Sequence record: AY308796.1
DNA: 49,902 nucleotides
Direction: 5' to 3' (one strand)
From: Escherichia phage Tls
In this document: in pieces, positions 43,502 to 49,902 of the stretch
How the letters are laid out: each line of letters opens with the position of its first letter
How positions within the stretch are numbered: position 1 is the first letter of the stretch
Translations under genes and position numbers: made by a program
The notes under the pieces: generated by a model
What the model was told of the DNA's origin: nothing
Seen by the model: only the letters and a program-made list of their open reading frames with translations
Database searches by the model: none

Positions 43502-45082
43502 TTACCCCATTAACGCCGGATTTACATAAACAAATTTACCAACGCTGCAAACATAATTCTTTTCTTCAAGCATTGGCAATAATTGTTCCTCAATTCGTTT
43601 CATCACGCCTGATTGACCTGTAAACGGCTTAACCTTACGCGCACTTTCATAGATAGCTCTTGCATTGGTAACGCCTTTATTTTGACGTGAGATCTTAATG
43701 ATGATTTCAATTAACTTGCTCATTTCGGCATCATCGCCAGCGTGACCGGAAGCATTCGCGGCGTTGATATATGTTTTGCTTAATTCGCTGAACATCACCA
43801 AAGCCTCTTGCATTGTCTCAACTTCAATTTCTCGCGACTTTTGCGGCGTACCGTTTGGATTAAACCAATTGCGGATCGTGTGCAATACTGACGCAATGCG
43901 GATCACTTGCTTATCCATTTTACCCAAAGCACCACGCAACATTGTATGTGAATATTTCCCGCCGTCTGCTAAATCTGGCTCTAATTGCTGGCGAGCAATA
44001 TTAAGAACACGCATTGCAGACCGTGACGGCTTCAATACAACATTTTGCTCAGTCATGATGTTATGAATCAACTGGAAATATTGCGCCTTTAATTCTTTAT
44101 CAACTGGCGTGTAATCAAGATCACCATTTTCATCAATAAATACACGCTCGCCTAACATTGTTTTTTCACGTACAAGCAAGAAACGTTCACTAACACCGAT
44201 ACCCCGCGCCCCTGCATCCATGATCCCTTTTATCGTTTCATCCTGGGCAATTACGCTCATGCAGCCCAACGCAACAAAACTCATATTGTTTTCAGAGTTG
44301 GCGCGAGCTATTGAAACGTGTCCGGCGTCCCATGCTTTTAGAACCAATTCGCTGTTAGTCTTGCGATCACTATTAGCGTAAGTCAATCCGAGTAAGCTGT
44401 TGATGCTTGTTGCTTCATCGGAAATGACAGCAAAGTTACCCTGGCGATTGTTGATCTTTGCTAACCCTTCCGGCGTGGTGTCTGATACCGGAAAAACGAT
44501 ATCGCACATTTTTTCTAACTTTTCCTCTAATTCCTCCTTTTCCTCAAACAACGCCGCTAACTCAGTGCCGGAACGTTCAGCTTTCAATTCCTTTTCAACG
44601 CCTTTTAATTTAGCTGCGATCTTCTTTCGCTCTTTCTTGCGTTGTTCGTTGATTCGCTCAACTTCACAGACCATTGGCGCAATAGCAAGGCTGTTGATTG
44701 CTGATTTACCAGTTGACGGAGGCTGACTGGTTACAACATAAAGCGCAGTTGGTTGTTCAGTGCCGTGGTACTCAACCTGGAAACGTCCAACCATAGCGGC
44801 GGAAACGCAACCAATGAAATGCATATAGGCCGATGATTCAGGAAATTGAACAGATTGCGCAATGCTACGTGACAGTTTACCCACAACATCAACATCATTA
44901 CCCAAAGAGATCACAGGATAGCGGTCATTAGCGCCGTTGATATCCTTTACAGGTTCCCAAAAGCTGGACGATTGGCGGTATCCGTTAGACTGAATAGCAA
45001 CGCGAAGCGGCGATGTTCCCTGCGATTCTGCAATGGCTATAACTTGTTGAGGTGTCAATTTGTTGGTGTCAAAGTCAAACAT
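43502..45082 (-). CDS. large P-loop NTPase-like protein of unknown function (526 aa)
   Basis: Walker A-like QPPSTGKSA; Lys/Glu-rich coiled-coil insert; perfect SD aaggag; first gene after a motif promoter. Confidence 0.6.
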   Translation of the reverse strand: MFDFDTNKLTPQQVIAIAESQGTSPLRVAIQSNGYRQSSSFWEPVKDINGANDRYPVISLGNDVDVVGKLSRSIAQSVQFPESSAYMHFIGCVSAAMVGRFQVEYHGTEQPTALYVVTSQPPSTGKSAINSLAIAPMVCEVERINEQRKKERKKIAAKLKGVEKELKAERSGTELAALFEEKEELEEKLEKMCDIVFPVSDTTPEGLAKINNRQGNFAVISDEATSINSLLGLTYANSDRKTNSELVLKAWDAGHVSIARANSENNMSFVALGCMSVIAQDETIKGIMDAGARGIGVSERFLLVREKTMLGERVFIDENGDLDYTPVDKELKAQYFQLIHNIMTEQNVVLKPSRSAMRVLNIARQQLEPDLADGGKYSHTMLRGALGKMDKQVIRIASVLHTIRNWFNPNGTPQKSREIEVETMQEALVMFSELSKTYINAANASGHAGDDAEMSKLIEIIIKISRQNKGVTNARAIYESARKVKPFTGQSGVMKRIEEQLLPMLEEKNYVCSVGKFVYVNPALMG

Positions 45083-45109
45083 CTAAAAATCTCCTTCTTG
45101 TTGCCGCTA

Positions 45110-45155
45110 ATTATAACGGCAACATTCTACAGCCTTTTAGCAATTCGTGCTATTT
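45110..45155 (-). promoter_or_regulatory. motif promoter (minus): AAATAGCACGAATTGCTAAAAG + 18 nt + TATAAT in hairpin loop
   Basis: Motif reverse complement at 45135-45155; -10 at 45110-45115; hairpin gttgccg/cggcaac. Confidence 0.55.
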
Positions 45156-45395
45156 GATCGGCTCAACCCTGGCTAATAACTTTCCGTCTATAATGCTATG
45201 ACATTCAAGAGTTTTAGGATCGAATGCAAGCGAACGATGGAACGTATGACCAATCAGCAACTTACCAGGCTTTTCCCTCACCTTGTAAACCTCATCGCCA
45301 GGTTTAAACATTGCCGAGTCGCTGTAAACGACTTTATACCGGAATTCGCGCATCGCTTTTGGGATGTGCCTTGTATATTCAACGCCTTTAATCAT
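45150..45395 (-). CDS. hypothetical protein (81 aa)
   Basis: ATG with SD aagga. Confidence 0.5.
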   Translation of the reverse strand: MIKGVEYTRHIPKAMREFRYKVVYSDSAMFKPGDEVYKVREKPGKLLIGHTFHRSLAFDPKTLECHSIIDGKLLARVEPIK

Positions 45396-45754
45396 TTGTA
45401 AAGTCCTTCAAACAGATAAGCGCCACCAGCGGCAGAGAATCCGACTTCCTCACGATACAGCGTGAAACGGTCGCCGTTTTCGTCGAACACATATCCAGCA
45501 ACAGCACCTAACACTCGGCCTTGTTCGATTTGGTAACGCTTATCAGCTTTGAAAGTTTTCTTGATCTGCATGGAATGGTTTACCCATGTGCATTTAATGG
45601 TTTTGGTCTTAACATTTCGGAATGTTAATCCGGTTAAGTTGGCGTGAATCCATTTCCCATCTAACTTAACGAAAGTATCATCATTTTCGTCTACCCGCGC
45701 TTTGTATAGGCGGTTATCAGATCCGATAAGTTTGATTGATTTGAATTTAGCCAT
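45392..45754 (-). CDS. hypothetical protein (120 aa)
   Basis: ATG with SD aaggag; ATGA overlap with downstream gene. Confidence 0.5.
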   Translation of the reverse strand: MAKFKSIKLIGSDNRLYKARVDENDDTFVKLDGKWIHANLTGLTFRNVKTKTIKCTWVNHSMQIKKTFKADKRYQIEQGRVLGAVAGYVFDENGDRFTLYREEVGFSAAGGAYLFEGLYK

Positions 45755-45786
45755 TTGATTTATCTCCTTTTGTTTTCGTTGAAAGC

Positions 45787-45832
45787 ATTATGCCGGATAC
45801 GTGATCCGGCGTTTTAACAAAAAGTGCTATTT
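45787..45832 (-). promoter_or_regulatory. motif promoter (minus): AAATAGCACTTTTTGTTAAAAC + 18 nt + CATAAT
   Basis: Motif reverse complement 45811-45832; hairpin gccggat/atccggc; -10 at 45787-45792. Confidence 0.55.
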
Positions 45833-46522
45833 CTGATTTGCCAGGCATACAGCAAGCGCAAAGCCGCGCGGAGTGAGTGAGCGGATCAGCTTTGTTCGCT
45901 TAGACTTACCTCCTAGCTTTTGCCAGCCTGGATTGTTGTTCCCTGTTGGCAATACTGCGTTTGTATCCGGCATCACAAAACCGTTACCCGTCCAAAGGCA
46001 AGTTTTTTTGGTGTACGCATCGCGAGCAGGAATGATTTCAGGAAAGTGAGGATGTTTATCATCTTCCGGCAACAGACCGCCAAACGCGCAAGGATGAAAT
46101 ATAAAATCGGGTTGCCGCCACATCGACGACAGGACGCTAACAGGATTCTCGATCACGTATGGCACATTGAACCAATCCGCAATTTCAGCCGCAATCTTGC
46201 ATGTTGAAACTGCCTTATCCTGGAATAGCGGATCACGTTCACGCTTTGCGGAAAAGTGACGCGAACCGCTAACAGCTAAATCAGTGCATGGAGGAAACGC
46301 GATCACAAAATCAGGCTTGCCGTAAACCTCATTGCGAGCCTTAAAGCTGAAATCTGAATCAATCCAAACGTTCACATACTCAATGTTGGGATGACTTACG
46401 CGCACTGAATGGTAATCACCATGATCGGCATCATCATAATTGAAACAGATTACTTTGTGACCACGTTCAGCCCACGGCAACGCATCATAACCGGAACCGC
46501 TAAAAAGAGAAAAAACTAACAT
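45827..46522 (-). CDS. compact DNA cytosine-5 methyltransferase-like protein
   Basis: Motif I-like FSLFSGSGYD, motif IV-like FPPCTDLAVSG (Pro-Cys), motif VI-like YVIENP; ATG 46522 with SD aaagga; ORF-track start 46606 is an extension. Confidence 0.55.
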   Translation of the reverse strand: MLVFSLFSGSGYDALPWAERGHKVICFNYDDADHGDYHSVRVSHPNIEYVNVWIDSDFSFKARNEVYGKPDFVIAFPPCTDLAVSGSRHFSAKRERDPLFQDKAVSTCKIAAEIADWFNVPYVIENPVSVLSSMWRQPDFIFHPCAFGGLLPEDDKHPHFPEIIPARDAYTKKTCLWTGNGFVMPDTNAVLPTGNNNPGWQKLGGKSKRTKLIRSLTPRGFALAVCLANQK

Positions 46523-46630
46523 ACTTAAATCCTTTGTGTATGGCCTTGTGAGGCGTTTTGTTTGTGGTGTCGCAACTGTATTGGCTACGGCCTGAAATCG
46601 CGCCATAATGCGAAACAGGCCGCTATTTTT

Positions 46631-46708
46631 TTACTTACAGAATGGGCATGTTGTTTTATCCCCGCTTCCGCCGTGTTTTGGACAGCAAATTTTTTCGATA
46701 GGTGTCAT
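46631..46708 (-). CDS. micro-ORF, 25-aa Cys-rich peptide (MTPIEKICCPKHGGSGDKTTCPFCK)
   Basis: Perfect SD aaggag 7 nt upstream of ATG; CC...CPFC spacing resembles a zinc ribbon; not in ORF track. Confidence 0.35.
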   Translation of the reverse strand: MTPIEKICCPKHGGSGDKTTCPFCK

Positions 46709-46720
46709 TTTAAATACTCC

Positions 46721-46945
46721 TTAGAATGGGAAACAACGCTTGCAAGATGGATCGAAGTTACAACCGCAATCATTGATTATTGCGTTAGGATCAGCAAGCA
46801 TCACGCTACTTTCTTGATCCATATCCATAGCGCCTAATGCATCATCAAGCGTCATTTCAAGATAGGCAACTTTAAGCGCCCATTCCTTGTTGAGTCCAGC
46901 CGCCTCCGCTTCATGTAGGCGAGCAAAGAAAGCATCTTGAACCAT
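46721..46945 (-). CDS. hypothetical protein with Cys-rich C-terminus (74 aa)
   Basis: In-frame ATG; C-terminal DCGCNFDPSCKRCF. Confidence 0.45.
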   Translation of the reverse strand: MVQDAFFARLHEAEAAGLNKEWALKVAYLEMTLDDALGAMDMDQESSVMLADPNAIINDCGCNFDPSCKRCFPF

Positions 46946-46946
46946 A

Positions 46947-47168
46947 TCAACCCCACTTCTCAATAAACATGCTCATTTCGTCAATCATCGCGTAAGCATC
47001 GCTTTCAGTCATGCGGCGTATTTTTCCGCCTGGGTGTTCGCCAACAGCGTAACCAGTTTTTACGCGGGTAATCGTTAACTGATGGAATCCAGAAGCGCGA
47101 TCCATTTTCAAAACTACTTTCCCGTGAGCTTTGACAATGTTCATGATGGATTCAGTTTTCAGTTTCAT
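46947..47168 (-). CDS. hypothetical protein (73 aa)
   Basis: ATG with SD ggaga; first gene after motif promoter. Confidence 0.5.
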   Translation of the reverse strand: MKLKTESIMNIVKAHGKVVLKMDRASGFHQLTITRVKTGYAVGEHPGGKIRRMTESDAYAMIDEMSMFIEKWG

Positions 47169-47199
47169 TTTTGATTCTCCATTTTGTTTATGTGAAAGT

Positions 47200-47245
47200 A
47201 TGATACCAATCAGAGCGATATCGTTTTTAGCAATTCGTGCTATTT
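47200..47245 (-). promoter_or_regulatory. motif promoter (minus): AAATAGCACGAATTGCTAAAAAC + TATCAT
   Basis: Motif reverse complement 47224-47245; -10 at 47200-47205. Confidence 0.5.
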
Positions 47246-47394
47246 ACGGCGATAAACGGATATCCTGTTAAATCTGCATTTCTATAACGTGCAGACCTAA
47301 CCCAACAGCCGCCTTTGCTCATAATTAAAGCGTTTTTATTGCGAATGTTCACGCGGTAAATTCTTCCGGTTTTTATGTTTTTGAAATATGTCAT
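47227..47394 (-). CDS. small hypothetical protein (55 aa) ending ...NSTNC inside promoter motif
   Basis: ATGA overlap with upstream gene; stop codon is the TTGCTAA of the motif; not in ORF track. Confidence 0.4.
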   Translation of the reverse strand: MTYFKNIKTGRIYRVNIRNKNALIMSKGGCWVRSARYRNADLTGYPFIAVNSTNC

Positions 47395-47636
47395 AATTTA
47401 ACCTCATGATATTCTATGAATTCTTGCACATATGCGCATTCGCGCGGCGACTCCTGGACTTTTAGGACTTCACAGCCACCATTAAACAGATAGCAATGAT
47501 GGCAAAGGTTGCCGCCTACGTTTTCCTCAGCGATCTGAATTCCGGTACACAAACCGCCACCAAACCTATGAACGAAATGATAAGCGGAACACCTGCAATT
47601 AATTTGCCTACGCTTTCTTTTTGCCGTGGTTTTCAT
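47391..47636 (-). CDS. Cys-rich hypothetical protein (81 aa)
   Basis: Cys pairs CRC...C and CHHC...C; overlaps HNH gene end. Confidence 0.5.
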   Translation of the reverse strand: MKTTAKRKRRQINCRCSAYHFVHRFGGGLCTGIQIAEENVGGNLCHHCYLFNGGCEVLKVQESPRECAYVQEFIEYHEVKL

Positions 47637-48120
47637 GAAAACCCCTGTTTATTTTTTCTCTCTCAATAGCCATGCCAGCTAATTCAGAAGAATCAAAAAG
47701 ACCAATATGGATTTCTTTTCCGTCTACTTTTAATCTTGCTCTCCATTTTTTAGCTACGGAATGCCACGACACACCGTTAAACCCTGATTTATTTGCTTTG
47801 CAATATGATTGATTTTTCCCGTTTTCATTTGCACTAACAAGGCGTAGATTTTCTATCCTGTTATCAGTTCTATCGTGGTTTATATGATCAATCTGCATTC
47901 CATCTGGAATTTTGCCATTATGCATTTCCCAAACGATTCGATGCGCAAGATAACTTTTATCATTCAGAGATATCTCTATGTATCCATCATTTCTTATGCT
48001 TCCGGCAACCTTTCCAGCCCATTTTTTATTCCATGCAGAGTCCCTATATGATCTTATGTTTGTGCGCGGCTTTCTTATAAGATTTCCGCAATCATATATA
48101 AAAAAGTCGTGCCAATTCAT
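47608..48120 (-). CDS. HNH homing endonuclease with AP2-like domain (second copy)
   Basis: Core QIDHINHDRTDNRIENLRLVSANENGKN and AP2-like GVSWH....KWRARLKVDG; SD ggag; paralogue of 40160-40636. Confidence 0.8.
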   Translation of the reverse strand: MNWHDFFIYDCGNLIRKPRTNIRSYRDSAWNKKWAGKVAGSIRNDGYIEISLNDKSYLAHRIVWEMHNGKIPDGMQIDHINHDRTDNRIENLRLVSANENGKNQSYCKANKSGFNGVSWHSVAKKWRARLKVDGKEIHIGLFDSSELAGMAIEREKINRGFHENHGKKKA

Positions 48121-48151
48121 TTCAAATTCTCCGGTTAGTTTCGATGAATGT

Positions 48152-48197
48152 ATTATGCCAAAACAAACCGGATCGCTTTTAACAAAAAGTGCTATTT
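48152..48197 (-). promoter_or_regulatory. motif promoter (minus): AAATAGCACTTTTTGTTAAAAG + CATAAT
   Basis: Motif reverse complement 48177-48197; -10 at 48152-48157. Confidence 0.55.
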
Positions 48198-48390
48198 AGT
48201 CAGATTCCATTACGATTACTGGTTCCAAACGCTCTAGCACAACCTTGAAATCTGCAAAGAAAGTCGGACGTCGCTTTGTCAATTCCTCATAGGTATCAGT
48301 TGCAATGCAAGCGCGATCACCTTCATAGCACACAACGCGTTTACTATTTGCGCGACTAATTGCAACAACTCGATAAGTATTCTTGATCAT
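48196..48390 (-). CDS. hypothetical protein (64 aa)
   Basis: ORF-track ORF with ATG; ATGA overlap with upstream gene. Confidence 0.45.
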   Translation of the reverse strand: MIKNTYRVVAISRANSKRVVCYEGDRACIATDTYEELTKRRPTFFADFKVVLERLEPVIVMESD

Positions 48391-48623
48391 TTCATCACCT
48401 CAATTGAATAAACATGTTCAACGCCTGGCGCGTATACCCGATTTTTATCATCAGTTACGCAAAGGCAAAGAGGCAAGCCGCGATTGTCTGTAATATGCAA
48501 GTGATTTTGTTTATCCATCAAAATTTCATATTCGCGATCTTCATCAAAGCGCCAAACGCTCAACATACCATCGCCCAGCATTTTTATTTTTGCTTTCTTG
48601 CCTACAAATTTTTGACCGATCAT
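48387..48623 (-). CDS. hypothetical protein (78 aa)
   Basis: ATG directly after upstream stop. Confidence 0.5.
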   Translation of the reverse strand: MIGQKFVGKKAKIKMLGDGMLSVWRFDEDREYEILMDKQNHLHITDNRGLPLCLCVTDDKNRVYAPGVEHVYSIEVMK

Positions 48624-48845
48624 TTATTTATCCTCCACAGTTTCAAATACGGTATTAAATGCCAGAAGTTTAAATTTCTTTCCAGGCTCAACCACTGCGA
48701 TATTCCAGGTAATTCCGCTGTGATATGCAACCATATCATCAATATCGACGGTGATTTGTGCGCCCTTCTTGAATAAGCCTTTTTCATGGCTCGCATCGCG
48801 TACAGTAACCACAGTTTCGAATTGCGTTTGTTGTTCAAAGTTCAT
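48624..48845 (-). CDS. hypothetical protein (73 aa)
   Basis: ATG with SD aggag; first gene after motif promoter. Confidence 0.5.
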   Translation of the reverse strand: MNFEQQTQFETVVTVRDASHEKGLFKKGAQITVDIDDMVAYHSGITWNIAVVEPGKKFKLLAFNTVFETVEDK

Positions 48846-48875
48846 CGTTGATTCTCCTGATTGGTTGATGTGTGT

Positions 48876-48921
48876 ATTATGCCGGAATAAGATCAGGCAC
48901 GTTTAACAAAAAGTGCTATTT
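48876..48921 (-). promoter_or_regulatory. motif promoter (minus): AAATAGCACTTTTTGTTAAAC + CATAAT
   Basis: Motif reverse complement 48901-48921; -10 at 48876-48881. Confidence 0.55.
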
Positions 48922-49060
48922 CAAAACACAAAAGCCCTGGCGCTAAAAGTATTATCTTTGACTATTTGCCGCGCCTCCAGGCAACGAGCTTTGCTGTGAA
49001 ATTCTTGCGTTGTTACCGCCTCACCTTGCATTGTTTGAAGCGCAATAATTAGCACGTAAA

Positions 49061-49279
49061 TCATTTTTCCTTTCCTTCATTGTATGCAAGGTTAATGTGA
49101 ATTGATGCACTTCCGACAATTTCAGCGGTTCCAATCTCAACCATGTATATCAATTCATGGCGGCTAAATGATGTGTATGCATGGAATCCGTTAACAATGC
49201 GCATAACCGGAAGTTCACTGTATTTTGTGTTAGGCACTGCATATTCATTGCCAGTGCTCTTAATGCGTATAAGAATCAT
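49061..49279 (-). CDS. hypothetical protein (72 aa)
   Basis: In-frame ATG with SD gggaga; ORF-track start 49300 is TTG. Confidence 0.45.
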   Translation of the reverse strand: MILIRIKSTGNEYAVPNTKYSELPVMRIVNGFHAYTSFSRHELIYMVEIGTAEIVGSASIHINLAYNEGKEK

Positions 49280-49280
49280 T

Positions 49281-49565
49281 TTATTCTCCCACGATCCCAA
49301 AGATAGAAATTATTGAGTTTGTACGACTCCGGCGATACTTGCGAATAACAACCGTTAAGTTTTCGCCTTGCTGATGACCTAACGTGATCGGCATTTCAGA
49401 ACCATCACCGAATTCATCACCAACCTTTTTGGGCTTTTCTCGCCACGCGCAAATGAAACCAAATTTATCACGCGTGATATAGCGGTATATGTTAGGAAGG
49501 GGAATCTTAACCCCTTCAAAGTCTACCGTTTGCGTGTAACTGCGGAAACTAAGCGTGGAATTCAT
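49281..49565 (-). CDS. hypothetical protein (94 aa)
   Basis: ATG with SD ggagagg. Confidence 0.5.
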   Translation of the reverse strand: MNSTLSFRSYTQTVDFEGVKIPLPNIYRYITRDKFGFICAWREKPKKVGDEFGDGSEMPITLGHQQGENLTVVIRKYRRSRTNSIISIFGIVGE

Positions 49566-49707
49566 AAATCACCTCTCCAAATTCTCCGATTACTTGCGCC
49601 TTGTAATATCCTCCGCGATTAGCCAACAAATACGCCTGGCTCAGTGTTTCAAGCGAGCGGGTTACTGGCTGGCTGTTTTCGTGTTCCCAGGTAATCAAGG
49701 TAGTCAT
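49549..49707 (-). CDS. small hypothetical protein (52 aa)
   Basis: ATG with SD gagga; first gene after motif promoter; not in ORF track. Confidence 0.4.
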   Translation of the reverse strand: MTTLITWEHENSQPVTRSLETLSQAYLLANRGGYYKAQVIGEFGEVIYEFHA

Positions 49708-49738
49708 TGCTAAATCCTCAGTTCATTTCAATGAAGTA

Positions 49739-49784
49739 ATCATAGCAATTCGTGGCTGATTGGTTTTAGCAAAAAATGCTATTC
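49739..49784 (-). promoter_or_regulatory. motif promoter (minus, variant): GAATAGCATTTTTTGCTAAAAC + 18 nt + TATGAT
   Basis: Motif reverse complement 49763-49784; -10 at 49739-49744. Confidence 0.5.
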
Positions 49785-49794
49785 ATGCGATAGA

Positions 49795-49902
49795 CCGATT
49801 GGTCTAGACCGATTGGTCTAATGAACACATCGTTTTCTGTATCGAACGCATTCACGATCCTGTTACGTGATCGTTATATGATCAGATGATGATTGATGTG
49901 TG
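49795..49902. repeat. non-coding window end with tandem direct repeat gaccgattggtcta x2 and GAT-rich tail
   Basis: Read directly: tagaccgattggtctagaccgattggtcta at about 49795-49822, then gatcagatgatgattgatgtgtg. Confidence 0.5.

Follow-up and report, generated by a model that had tools for sequence, protein, structure and literature searches.

A 25-codon gene missed in the annotation of Escherichia phage Tls encodes a conserved candidate one-zinc peptide found in virulent enterobacterial phages

The genome of Escherichia phage Tls (hereafter TLS; sequence record AY308796.1) was analyzed over a stretch of 49,902 nucleotides, which is referred to as the window. The region of interest spans positions 46,631 to 47,636, and our main subject is an open reading frame (ORF) of 25 codons at its lower end. 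The initial annotation, made from the letters of the window, had described this minus-strand ORF as preceded by AAGGAG at good spacing, and both are found in the sequence as described.

46631–46708, minus strand: gene of 25 codons plus a stop codon, encoding MTPIEKICCPKHGGSGDKTTCPFCK; candidate zinc ligands C9, H12, C21, and C24
46717–46722, minus strand: Shine-Dalgarno sequence AAGGAG of the 25-codon gene, 8 nucleotides before the ATG at 46708, overlapping the TAA stop codon of gp75 (46721–46723)
46562–46837, plus strand: wrong-strand ORF overlapping the 25-codon gene, as in some GenBank records

The region is 92–98% identical to Tlsvirus T1-like phages, the closest being U136B, FSL SP-126, and Stevie. 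The gene table of the 2024 TLS re-annotation agrees in its coordinates (gp72–gp79) with the ORFs of the window and has no entry for positions 46631–46708, the ORF carries no annotation in the records of U136B, Stevie, and UTK0006, and most relatives' records miss the gene. In Punny (PUNNY_50, 285–488) and Henu4_2 (Gp65, 172–489), an opposite-strand 'hypothetical protein' occupies the gap between gp75 and the methylase gene and overlaps the 25-codon gene. At 97% identity, the record OR786094.1, 'Streptococcus phage MBBL140', also matches this enterobacterial Tlsvirus region; it gives Streptococcus agalactiae as host, and either this label or the sample is probably in error. Short ORFs are common by chance, with 94 ORFs of at least 20 residues overlapping positions 44000–49902. 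Because so many lie in the same 5.9-kb stretch, the 25-codon ORF is by itself weak evidence for a gene.

The peptide was searched for by tblastn on phage records and by degenerate DNA patterns on IMG/VR, metagenomes, and species genomes; the query for protein databases was a tandem of two natural variants. By tblastn, the peptide is found in 137 phage records with 72–100% identity, and the degenerate patterns located further loci on 20 IMG/VR contigs and 8 metagenome contigs. The ORF has exactly 25 codons in every one of 22 distinct nucleotide versions, among which the stop codons TAA, TAG, and TGA are all represented. Variable sites amount to 8 of 25 at codon position 1, 10 of 25 at position 2, and 24 of 25 at position 3 (Fisher p = 3e-7, position 3 versus positions 1 and 2). 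The mean pairwise synonymous divergence (pS) is 0.76, near saturation, versus a nonsynonymous divergence (pN) of 0.10. Frames +2, +3, −1, −2, and −3 contain stop codons in 4–12 of 12 diverse versions, and frame +1 alone stays open throughout. The ORF resides in five gene contexts distributed over three phage groups, namely Drexlerviridae, Skatevirus, and the T4-like Pseudotevenvirus.

Tlsvirus: gp76, gp75, 25-codon gene, spacer, methylase gene
Henuseptimavirus and related Klebsiella phages: gp75 homologue, methylase gene, 25-codon gene; methylase 69% and gp75 72% identical to TLS
Tunavirinae (Sfin-5, BrunoManser): 25-codon gene among unrelated neighbours
Skatevirus: ParB-HTH protein gene, 25-codon gene, gene for 57 residues, clamp-like gene
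RB43-like T4 phages: NMN (nicotinamide mononucleotide)-adenylyltransferase/Nudix gene, 25-codon gene, terminator hairpin

Each genomic context provides either a Shine-Dalgarno sequence or a stop/start overlap at the micro-ORF, the latter being TGATG at its start in Skate. In the RB43-like T4 phages (two loci, 1986–2078), an in-frame ATG lies five codons upstream, and there is a TAATG overlap with the stop codon of the NMN-adenylyltransferase/Nudix gene. The product of these phages may have 30 residues, with an N-terminal MKILT before MTPIEK. In the same phages, both the terminator hairpin and a promoter-like TATATT box lie after the micro-ORF.

These data bear on whether the micro-ORF could be something other than a functional protein, that is, a chance ORF, a translational-coupling or leader peptide for a downstream gene, or a trace left by some conserved element in RNA or DNA. 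The abundance of short chance ORFs, the repeat or terminator elements adjoining the ORF end in several phages, and the missing annotation in most records would suit such an explanation, but we consider it very improbable, as synonymous sites are nearly saturated while amino acids are kept, the length is fixed with three stop codons in use, the other frames are closed, the downstream gene is different in each of the five contexts, and a conserved RNA element would require a higher nucleotide identity across contexts. Specifically, a regulatory leader or upstream ORF was rejected on the basis of five contexts with five different downstream genes or terminators, and a conserved RNA or DNA element on the basis of the pS and pN values, the codon-position pattern, and the closed alternative frames. 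The comparative evidence argues strongly that the micro-ORF specifies a translated, selected peptide. It is kept under selection, together with its Cys and His residues, in related and unrelated phages alike, the reverse of the lack of conservation that the initial annotation had named as grounds for giving up its proposal. Judged by these comparisons, the 25-codon gene is a genuine protein-coding gene missed by published annotation, and it offers a checkable case of a functional gene under the length cut-off of gene callers. Translation from its own Shine-Dalgarno sequence, right after gp75, appears likely to us as part of the reading that we favour below.

The genomes that carry the peptide can have little else in common. 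A whole-genome protein comparison of TLS and Skate reveals only replication genes (34–41% identity) and HNH endonucleases (35–50%) in common, whereas the two peptides agree at 84% identity. In this comparison, Skate lacks homologues of the methylase and of gp75, gp76, gp77, and gp78. The peptide pattern was not found in 185,579 species-representative bacterial and archaeal genomes, nor the peptide in PLSDB plasmids, nor the DNA of the 25-codon gene in 5,426 complete E. coli genomes. Within Drexlerviridae, its occurrence is patchy. As this distribution indicates, the 25-codon gene forms a small accessory cassette that occurs in virulent enterobacterial phages only and passes horizontally between unrelated ones.

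Many of the tblastn matches to the peptide are genome-reduced mutants of Salmonella phage seszw, which are viable and were made with CRISPR (CiPGr) (PMC9825161). These mutants share a 173-bp deletion that starts after codon 20 of the micro-ORF, so that C21, C24, and the next gene are gone and MTPIEKICCPRHGGSGTKSTKQHMIKVK is left. The deletion design was aimed at the neighbouring annotated gene alone (PMC9825161). An intact pair of knuckles is not required for plaques on the laboratory host. Since mutants without the second knuckle are viable, the 25-codon gene is accessory and dispensable.

Among 17 distinct peptides, the residues M1, T2, P3, E5, K6, C9, H12, G13, G14, S15, G16, C21, P22, and C24 are invariant, and C8 is variable, being Ala or Ile in the T4-like versions. 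The candidate ligands form two x2-spaced pairs, C9-x2-H12-x8-C21-x2-C24, which flank the invariant GGSG loop. Most probably, the peptide is a minimal single-zinc CHCC knuckle pair, with zinc binding predicted from the ligand pattern. An AlphaFold2 (AF2) model was built on the 30-residue T4-like version. It has a predicted local distance difference test (pLDDT) score of 74 and short turns at both knuckles.

The peptide resembles the one-domain C(P)XCG micro-proteins, exemplified by Haloferax volcanii HVO_0758 and its relatives, in being very small and stand-alone and in having an x2-spaced Cys knuckle pair for one predicted zinc. Most zinc-finger micro-proteins of the HVO_0758 type have partners that are not known (PMC10716476, PMC11241148, PMC6562870). 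They are cellular, archaeal, roughly 40–70 residues long, and mostly Cys4, whereas the TLS peptide is phage-borne and has 25 residues. It further differs from them in its C-x2-H and C-x2-C ligands, in the 8 residues between knuckles, and in its invariant N-terminal hexapeptide, and no sequence homology to HVO_0758-type proteins was detected. A second likeness is with Stp of phage T4, a peptide of about 26 residues. Stp inhibits the type Ic restriction enzyme EcoprrI (PMC1484252). It is, like the TLS product, a phage peptide of about 25 residues, and it sets a precedent for a specific effector against a host defence protein. Unlike the TLS peptide, Stp has no Cys/His metal site, and there is no sequence similarity between the two. 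By the comparisons made here, the micro-ORF would define a new family, so far unannotated, within a general kind already known, namely very small accessory proteins of zinc-finger type, with an unusually high conservation across phage families.

We consider it rather probable that this missed gene encodes a mobile accessory peptide with a one-zinc CHCC site that binds a conserved host macromolecule. The peptide would act early in infection by stoichiometric binding to one such macromolecule, and its role would be that of a host-takeover or anti-defence effector. As a 25-residue peptide is too small for catalysis, a binder is favoured over an enzyme. Because the peptide sequence is preserved although each of the phage genes around it varies, a host target is most likely. 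The 84% identity (versus at most 50% for the replication and HNH proteins in common) and the horizontal spread, taken together, point to one conserved target. We infer the zinc binding, the host target, and the biological role of the peptide. A synthetic peptide of 2.6 kDa would be directly usable for metal-binding, pull-down, and structural work.

Several observations weigh against this interpretation. The AF2 model of the peptide is of moderate confidence with a 5-sequence alignment behind it, and Foldseek found no structural match for it in the PDB. The peptide has no PDB match by sequence or profile, and no family in Pfam (even at E <= 10), PHROGs, NCBIfam, or PADLOC. A literature search for the string MTPIEK found nothing, and the literature on phage zinc micro-proteins yielded analogues and not the peptide itself. 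The case for translation, metal binding, and a host target is drawn from sequence comparison. The deletion in the seszw mutants targeted the neighbour gene and the mutants are generally less fit; a quantitative contribution by the peptide is possible (PMC9825161). An anti-defence role is possibly to be assigned, with gene neighbourhood as its only basis: in Tempevirinae, the adjacent gene is that of an orphan methylase, and in RB43-like phages that of an NMN-adenylyltransferase. An NMN adenylyltransferase of this kind forms the NARP2 counter-defence pathway, which reconstitutes nicotinamide adenine dinucleotide (NAD+) (10.1101/2024.02.11.579819). We tentatively suggest, as a conjecture more doubtful than the host-binding reading, that the peptide is a portable effector swapped among T1-like, Skate-like, and T4-like virulent phages and that it neutralizes one highly conserved host protein, most plausibly of anti-phage defence or restriction. 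If this is true, the peptide would be among the smallest stand-alone zinc-finger effectors known and would stand for a gene class systematically missed by standard phage annotation.

The peptide might instead act on a phage process, for example as a zinc-dependent cofactor of shared replication, recombination, or packaging proteins. The Skate gene lies between those of a ParB-HTH protein and a sliding-clamp-like protein, and homologues of helicase, primase, and exonuclease are common to TLS and Skate. However, these replication proteins have diverged to the 34–41% identity given above while the peptide has not, the RB43-like T4 phages use a different replication machinery, and the peptide is patchy in Drexlerviridae and truncated in the viable seszw mutants. 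We hold a phage target to be unlikely.

A function tied to the adjacent Dcm-like methyltransferase has to be weighed against the arrangement of the genes downstream and upstream of the micro-ORF, which in TLS are bounded by 21-nucleotide direct repeats.

47225–47245, minus strand: direct repeat DR15, 21 nucleotides, aaatagcacgaattgctaaaa, upstream of gp76, gp75, the 25-codon gene, and gp74
46523–46630, minus strand: 108-nucleotide spacer from the 25-codon gene to the conserved methylase start, with a hairpin and an ATAGC remnant of the repeat
46587–46623, minus strand: spacer hairpin GCGGCCUG...CAGGCCGU, just after the 25-codon gene, with the ATAGC repeat remnant before the hairpin
45827–46522, minus strand: gp74, Dcm-like methyltransferase, conserved 231-residue form (45827–46606 in the TLS table)
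45812–45832, minus strand: direct repeat DR14, 21 nucleotides, closing the module

The published repeat table of TLS lists DR15 at 47245..47225 and DR14 at 45832..45812 with no repeat between them (PMC11447400). The module from DR15 to DR14 is composed of gp76, gp75, the 25-codon gene, and the methylase gene, and the preceding one, from DR16 to DR15, contains gp77, gp78, and the HNH gene. The peptide could accordingly be imagined as a partner or regulator of the methyltransferase, such as a zinc-finger specificity or control subunit, and the cluster as a methylase operon. In Tempevirinae, the peptide gene always adjoins the methylase gene, lying upstream of it in Tlsvirus and directly downstream, 10 nucleotides off, in Henuseptimavirus and related Klebsiella phages, and in TLS both genes lie between the same pair of repeats. 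The methylase is also unusually compact at 231 residues and falls below the cut-off of Pfam PF00145 (E = 0.029), with PPC- and ENP-type motifs visible. Against such a partnership, the methylase family is present in 1486 phage records, large myoviruses included, versus 137 for the peptide, and the Skate genome encodes the peptide but nowhere a homologue of the methylase. Neighbours are unrelated in Tunavirinae and RB43-like phages, and the 84% peptide identity between phages without a common methylase speaks for a target encoded outside the phage. An obligate methylase partner was rejected, as co-occurrence fails in the record counts and in Skate, and we give a methylase-related function of any kind a slim chance.

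The initial annotation had placed several metal-binding-type peptides in one operon with the methyltransferase. Its core stands, namely a coding gene under selection that has a Shine-Dalgarno sequence and conserved Cys/His spacing, while the link to the methylase holds locally and not in general. The roles that it proposed for these peptides, as regulators or host-factor inhibitors, are putative. The 25-codon gene, gp75, gp76, and the methylase gene do lie between two consecutive repeats in TLS, and the 25-codon gene and the methylase gene may be co-transcribed there. On the other side, the 108-nucleotide spacer with its conserved hairpin separates the two, the order is permuted in Henuseptimavirus, and the disparity in record numbers and the absence from Skate apply here as well. 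The proposed cluster of Cys-rich genes likewise holds as to content, since three such genes are present, but they are divided between two modules, with the 81-residue gene in DR16–DR15 and the 74-residue and 25-residue genes in DR15–DR14 together with the methylase gene.

The sequence of the spacer hairpin is conserved within Tlsvirus, with neither a T-run nor any covariation or compensatory changes. A simple scan for promoters and terminators missed the early promoters and gave no terminator downstream of the micro-ORF. In Henuseptimavirus, the last sense codon and the stop codon of the ORF (AAA TAG) are the first bases of a full 21-nucleotide repeat. The methylase start differs among records, with an ATG at 46606 (259 residues) in TLS and, in relatives, a start at the equivalent of 46522 (231 residues) or at other upstream codons (249 residues). 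Aligned with the BubbaBully methylase, the TLS protein matches from residue 2 of the 231-residue form onward. The 28-residue N-terminal extension (46523–46606) is probably not real.

The peptide could also be a restriction-alleviation protein of the Lar/RalR type that acts on type I restriction enzymes. Lar/RalR of the Rac prophage, likewise small and of phage origin, carries a CPFC knuckle of zinc-ribbon type, and its Pfam family is Lar_restr_allev. The CPFC knuckle of the peptide corresponds to the first one in Rac Lar, an NR entry of an extended 38-residue version (P0003) is named 'restriction alleviation protein', and the peptide gene adjoins an orphan methylase gene in some phages. Rac Lar, however, is 64 residues long and, unlike the peptide, contains another CxxC and ends in a helical tail. 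The hhalign alignment pairs 8 columns only (KxxCPFCx), between the C-terminal end of the peptide and the N-terminal knuckle of Lar; because the aligned columns fall at opposite ends, the topologies differ. There is no Pfam match even at E = 10. Membership in the Lar/RalR family was rejected on the 8-column alignment at opposite ends and on the missing Pfam match (E <= 10), and action in the manner of Lar seems to us as improbable as a methylase partnership. An anti-restriction function is possible all the same, the rejection covering Lar family membership only.

The small protein anti-TRAP of Bacillus is built from the DnaJ-type CxxCxGxG motif. The peptide segment CPKHGGSG fits this motif, with His replacing the second Cys, and hhalign pairs it with DnaJ 160–169, TCPTCHGSGQ. 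In contrast to DnaJ, the peptide has one motif without repeats, and its second knuckle has no GxG tail. A DnaJ-type CxxCxGxG finger was rejected, as the alignment comprises 10 columns at 8.5% probability and there is no Pfam match.

The genes upstream of the micro-ORF are as follows.

46721–46945, minus strand: gp75, 74 residues, phrog_9323, with an N-terminal conserved region of helical type, an acidic linker, and a C-terminal Cys cluster
46947–47168, minus strand: gp76, 73 residues, phrog_4344, without cysteine, first gene of the module bounded by DR15
47227–47394, minus strand: gp77, 55 residues, phrog_16768, with two Cys and no metal-site pattern
47391–47636, minus strand: gp78, 81 residues, phrog_5016, with 7 Cys and 1 His
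47608–48120, minus strand: gp79, HNH endonuclease, inserted with respect to Stevie-like relatives, its 3' end overlapping the gp78 start by 29 nucleotides

The C-terminal end of gp75, DCGCNFDPSCKRCFPF, is present as the initial annotation had it. Its cluster C60-x-C62-x5-C68-x2-C71 (46733–46768) has four Cys that are at least 90% conserved in 68 homologue clusters, with one divergent member lacking the C-terminal Cys cluster. No Pfam, NCBIfam, or PDB match was found for gp75. The homologues of gp75 and gp76 in U136B (U136B_078, U136B_079), FSL SP-126, YSP2, and Motto are named 'putative cytosine DNA methylase' and 'polyribonucleotide nucleotidyltransferase'. Searches of Pfam, NCBIfam, and PHROGs gave no support for these product names, which look like propagated mis-annotations.

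The Cys-rich character of gp78 was also borne out, its 7 Cys including the CRC and CHHC motifs. The family has 84 representative clusters at E < 1e-3, with lengths of about 75–115 residues. The residues C14, C16, Y19, F21, P22, H23, R24, G27, G28, C30, C45, C48, C55, and C67 are invariant or near-invariant, giving the signature CxC-x2-Y-x-FPHR-x2-GG-x-C ... CxxC ... C ... C. These provide eight putative ligands, enough for two predicted zinc sites. The AF2 model of gp78 has a pLDDT of 83. None of 50 members of the family has a Pfam match, and gp78 has neither a sequence match nor a structural neighbour in the PDB. It may represent an undescribed two-zinc fold. The Cys patterns are kept in the families of the 25-residue peptide, gp75, and gp78, which makes it reasonable to regard all three as being of metal-binding type; the three products are unrelated to one another. 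As conserved Cys-rich families without known fold or function, gp75 and gp78 mark the early region as a source of uncharacterized host-directed proteins. The HNH gene gp79 is present in TLS, U136B, and FSL SP-126, and a gene of roughly 93 residues takes its place in Stevie-like relatives. The overlap with gp79 alters the N-terminus of gp78, which reads MKTTAKRKR versus MKRKR.

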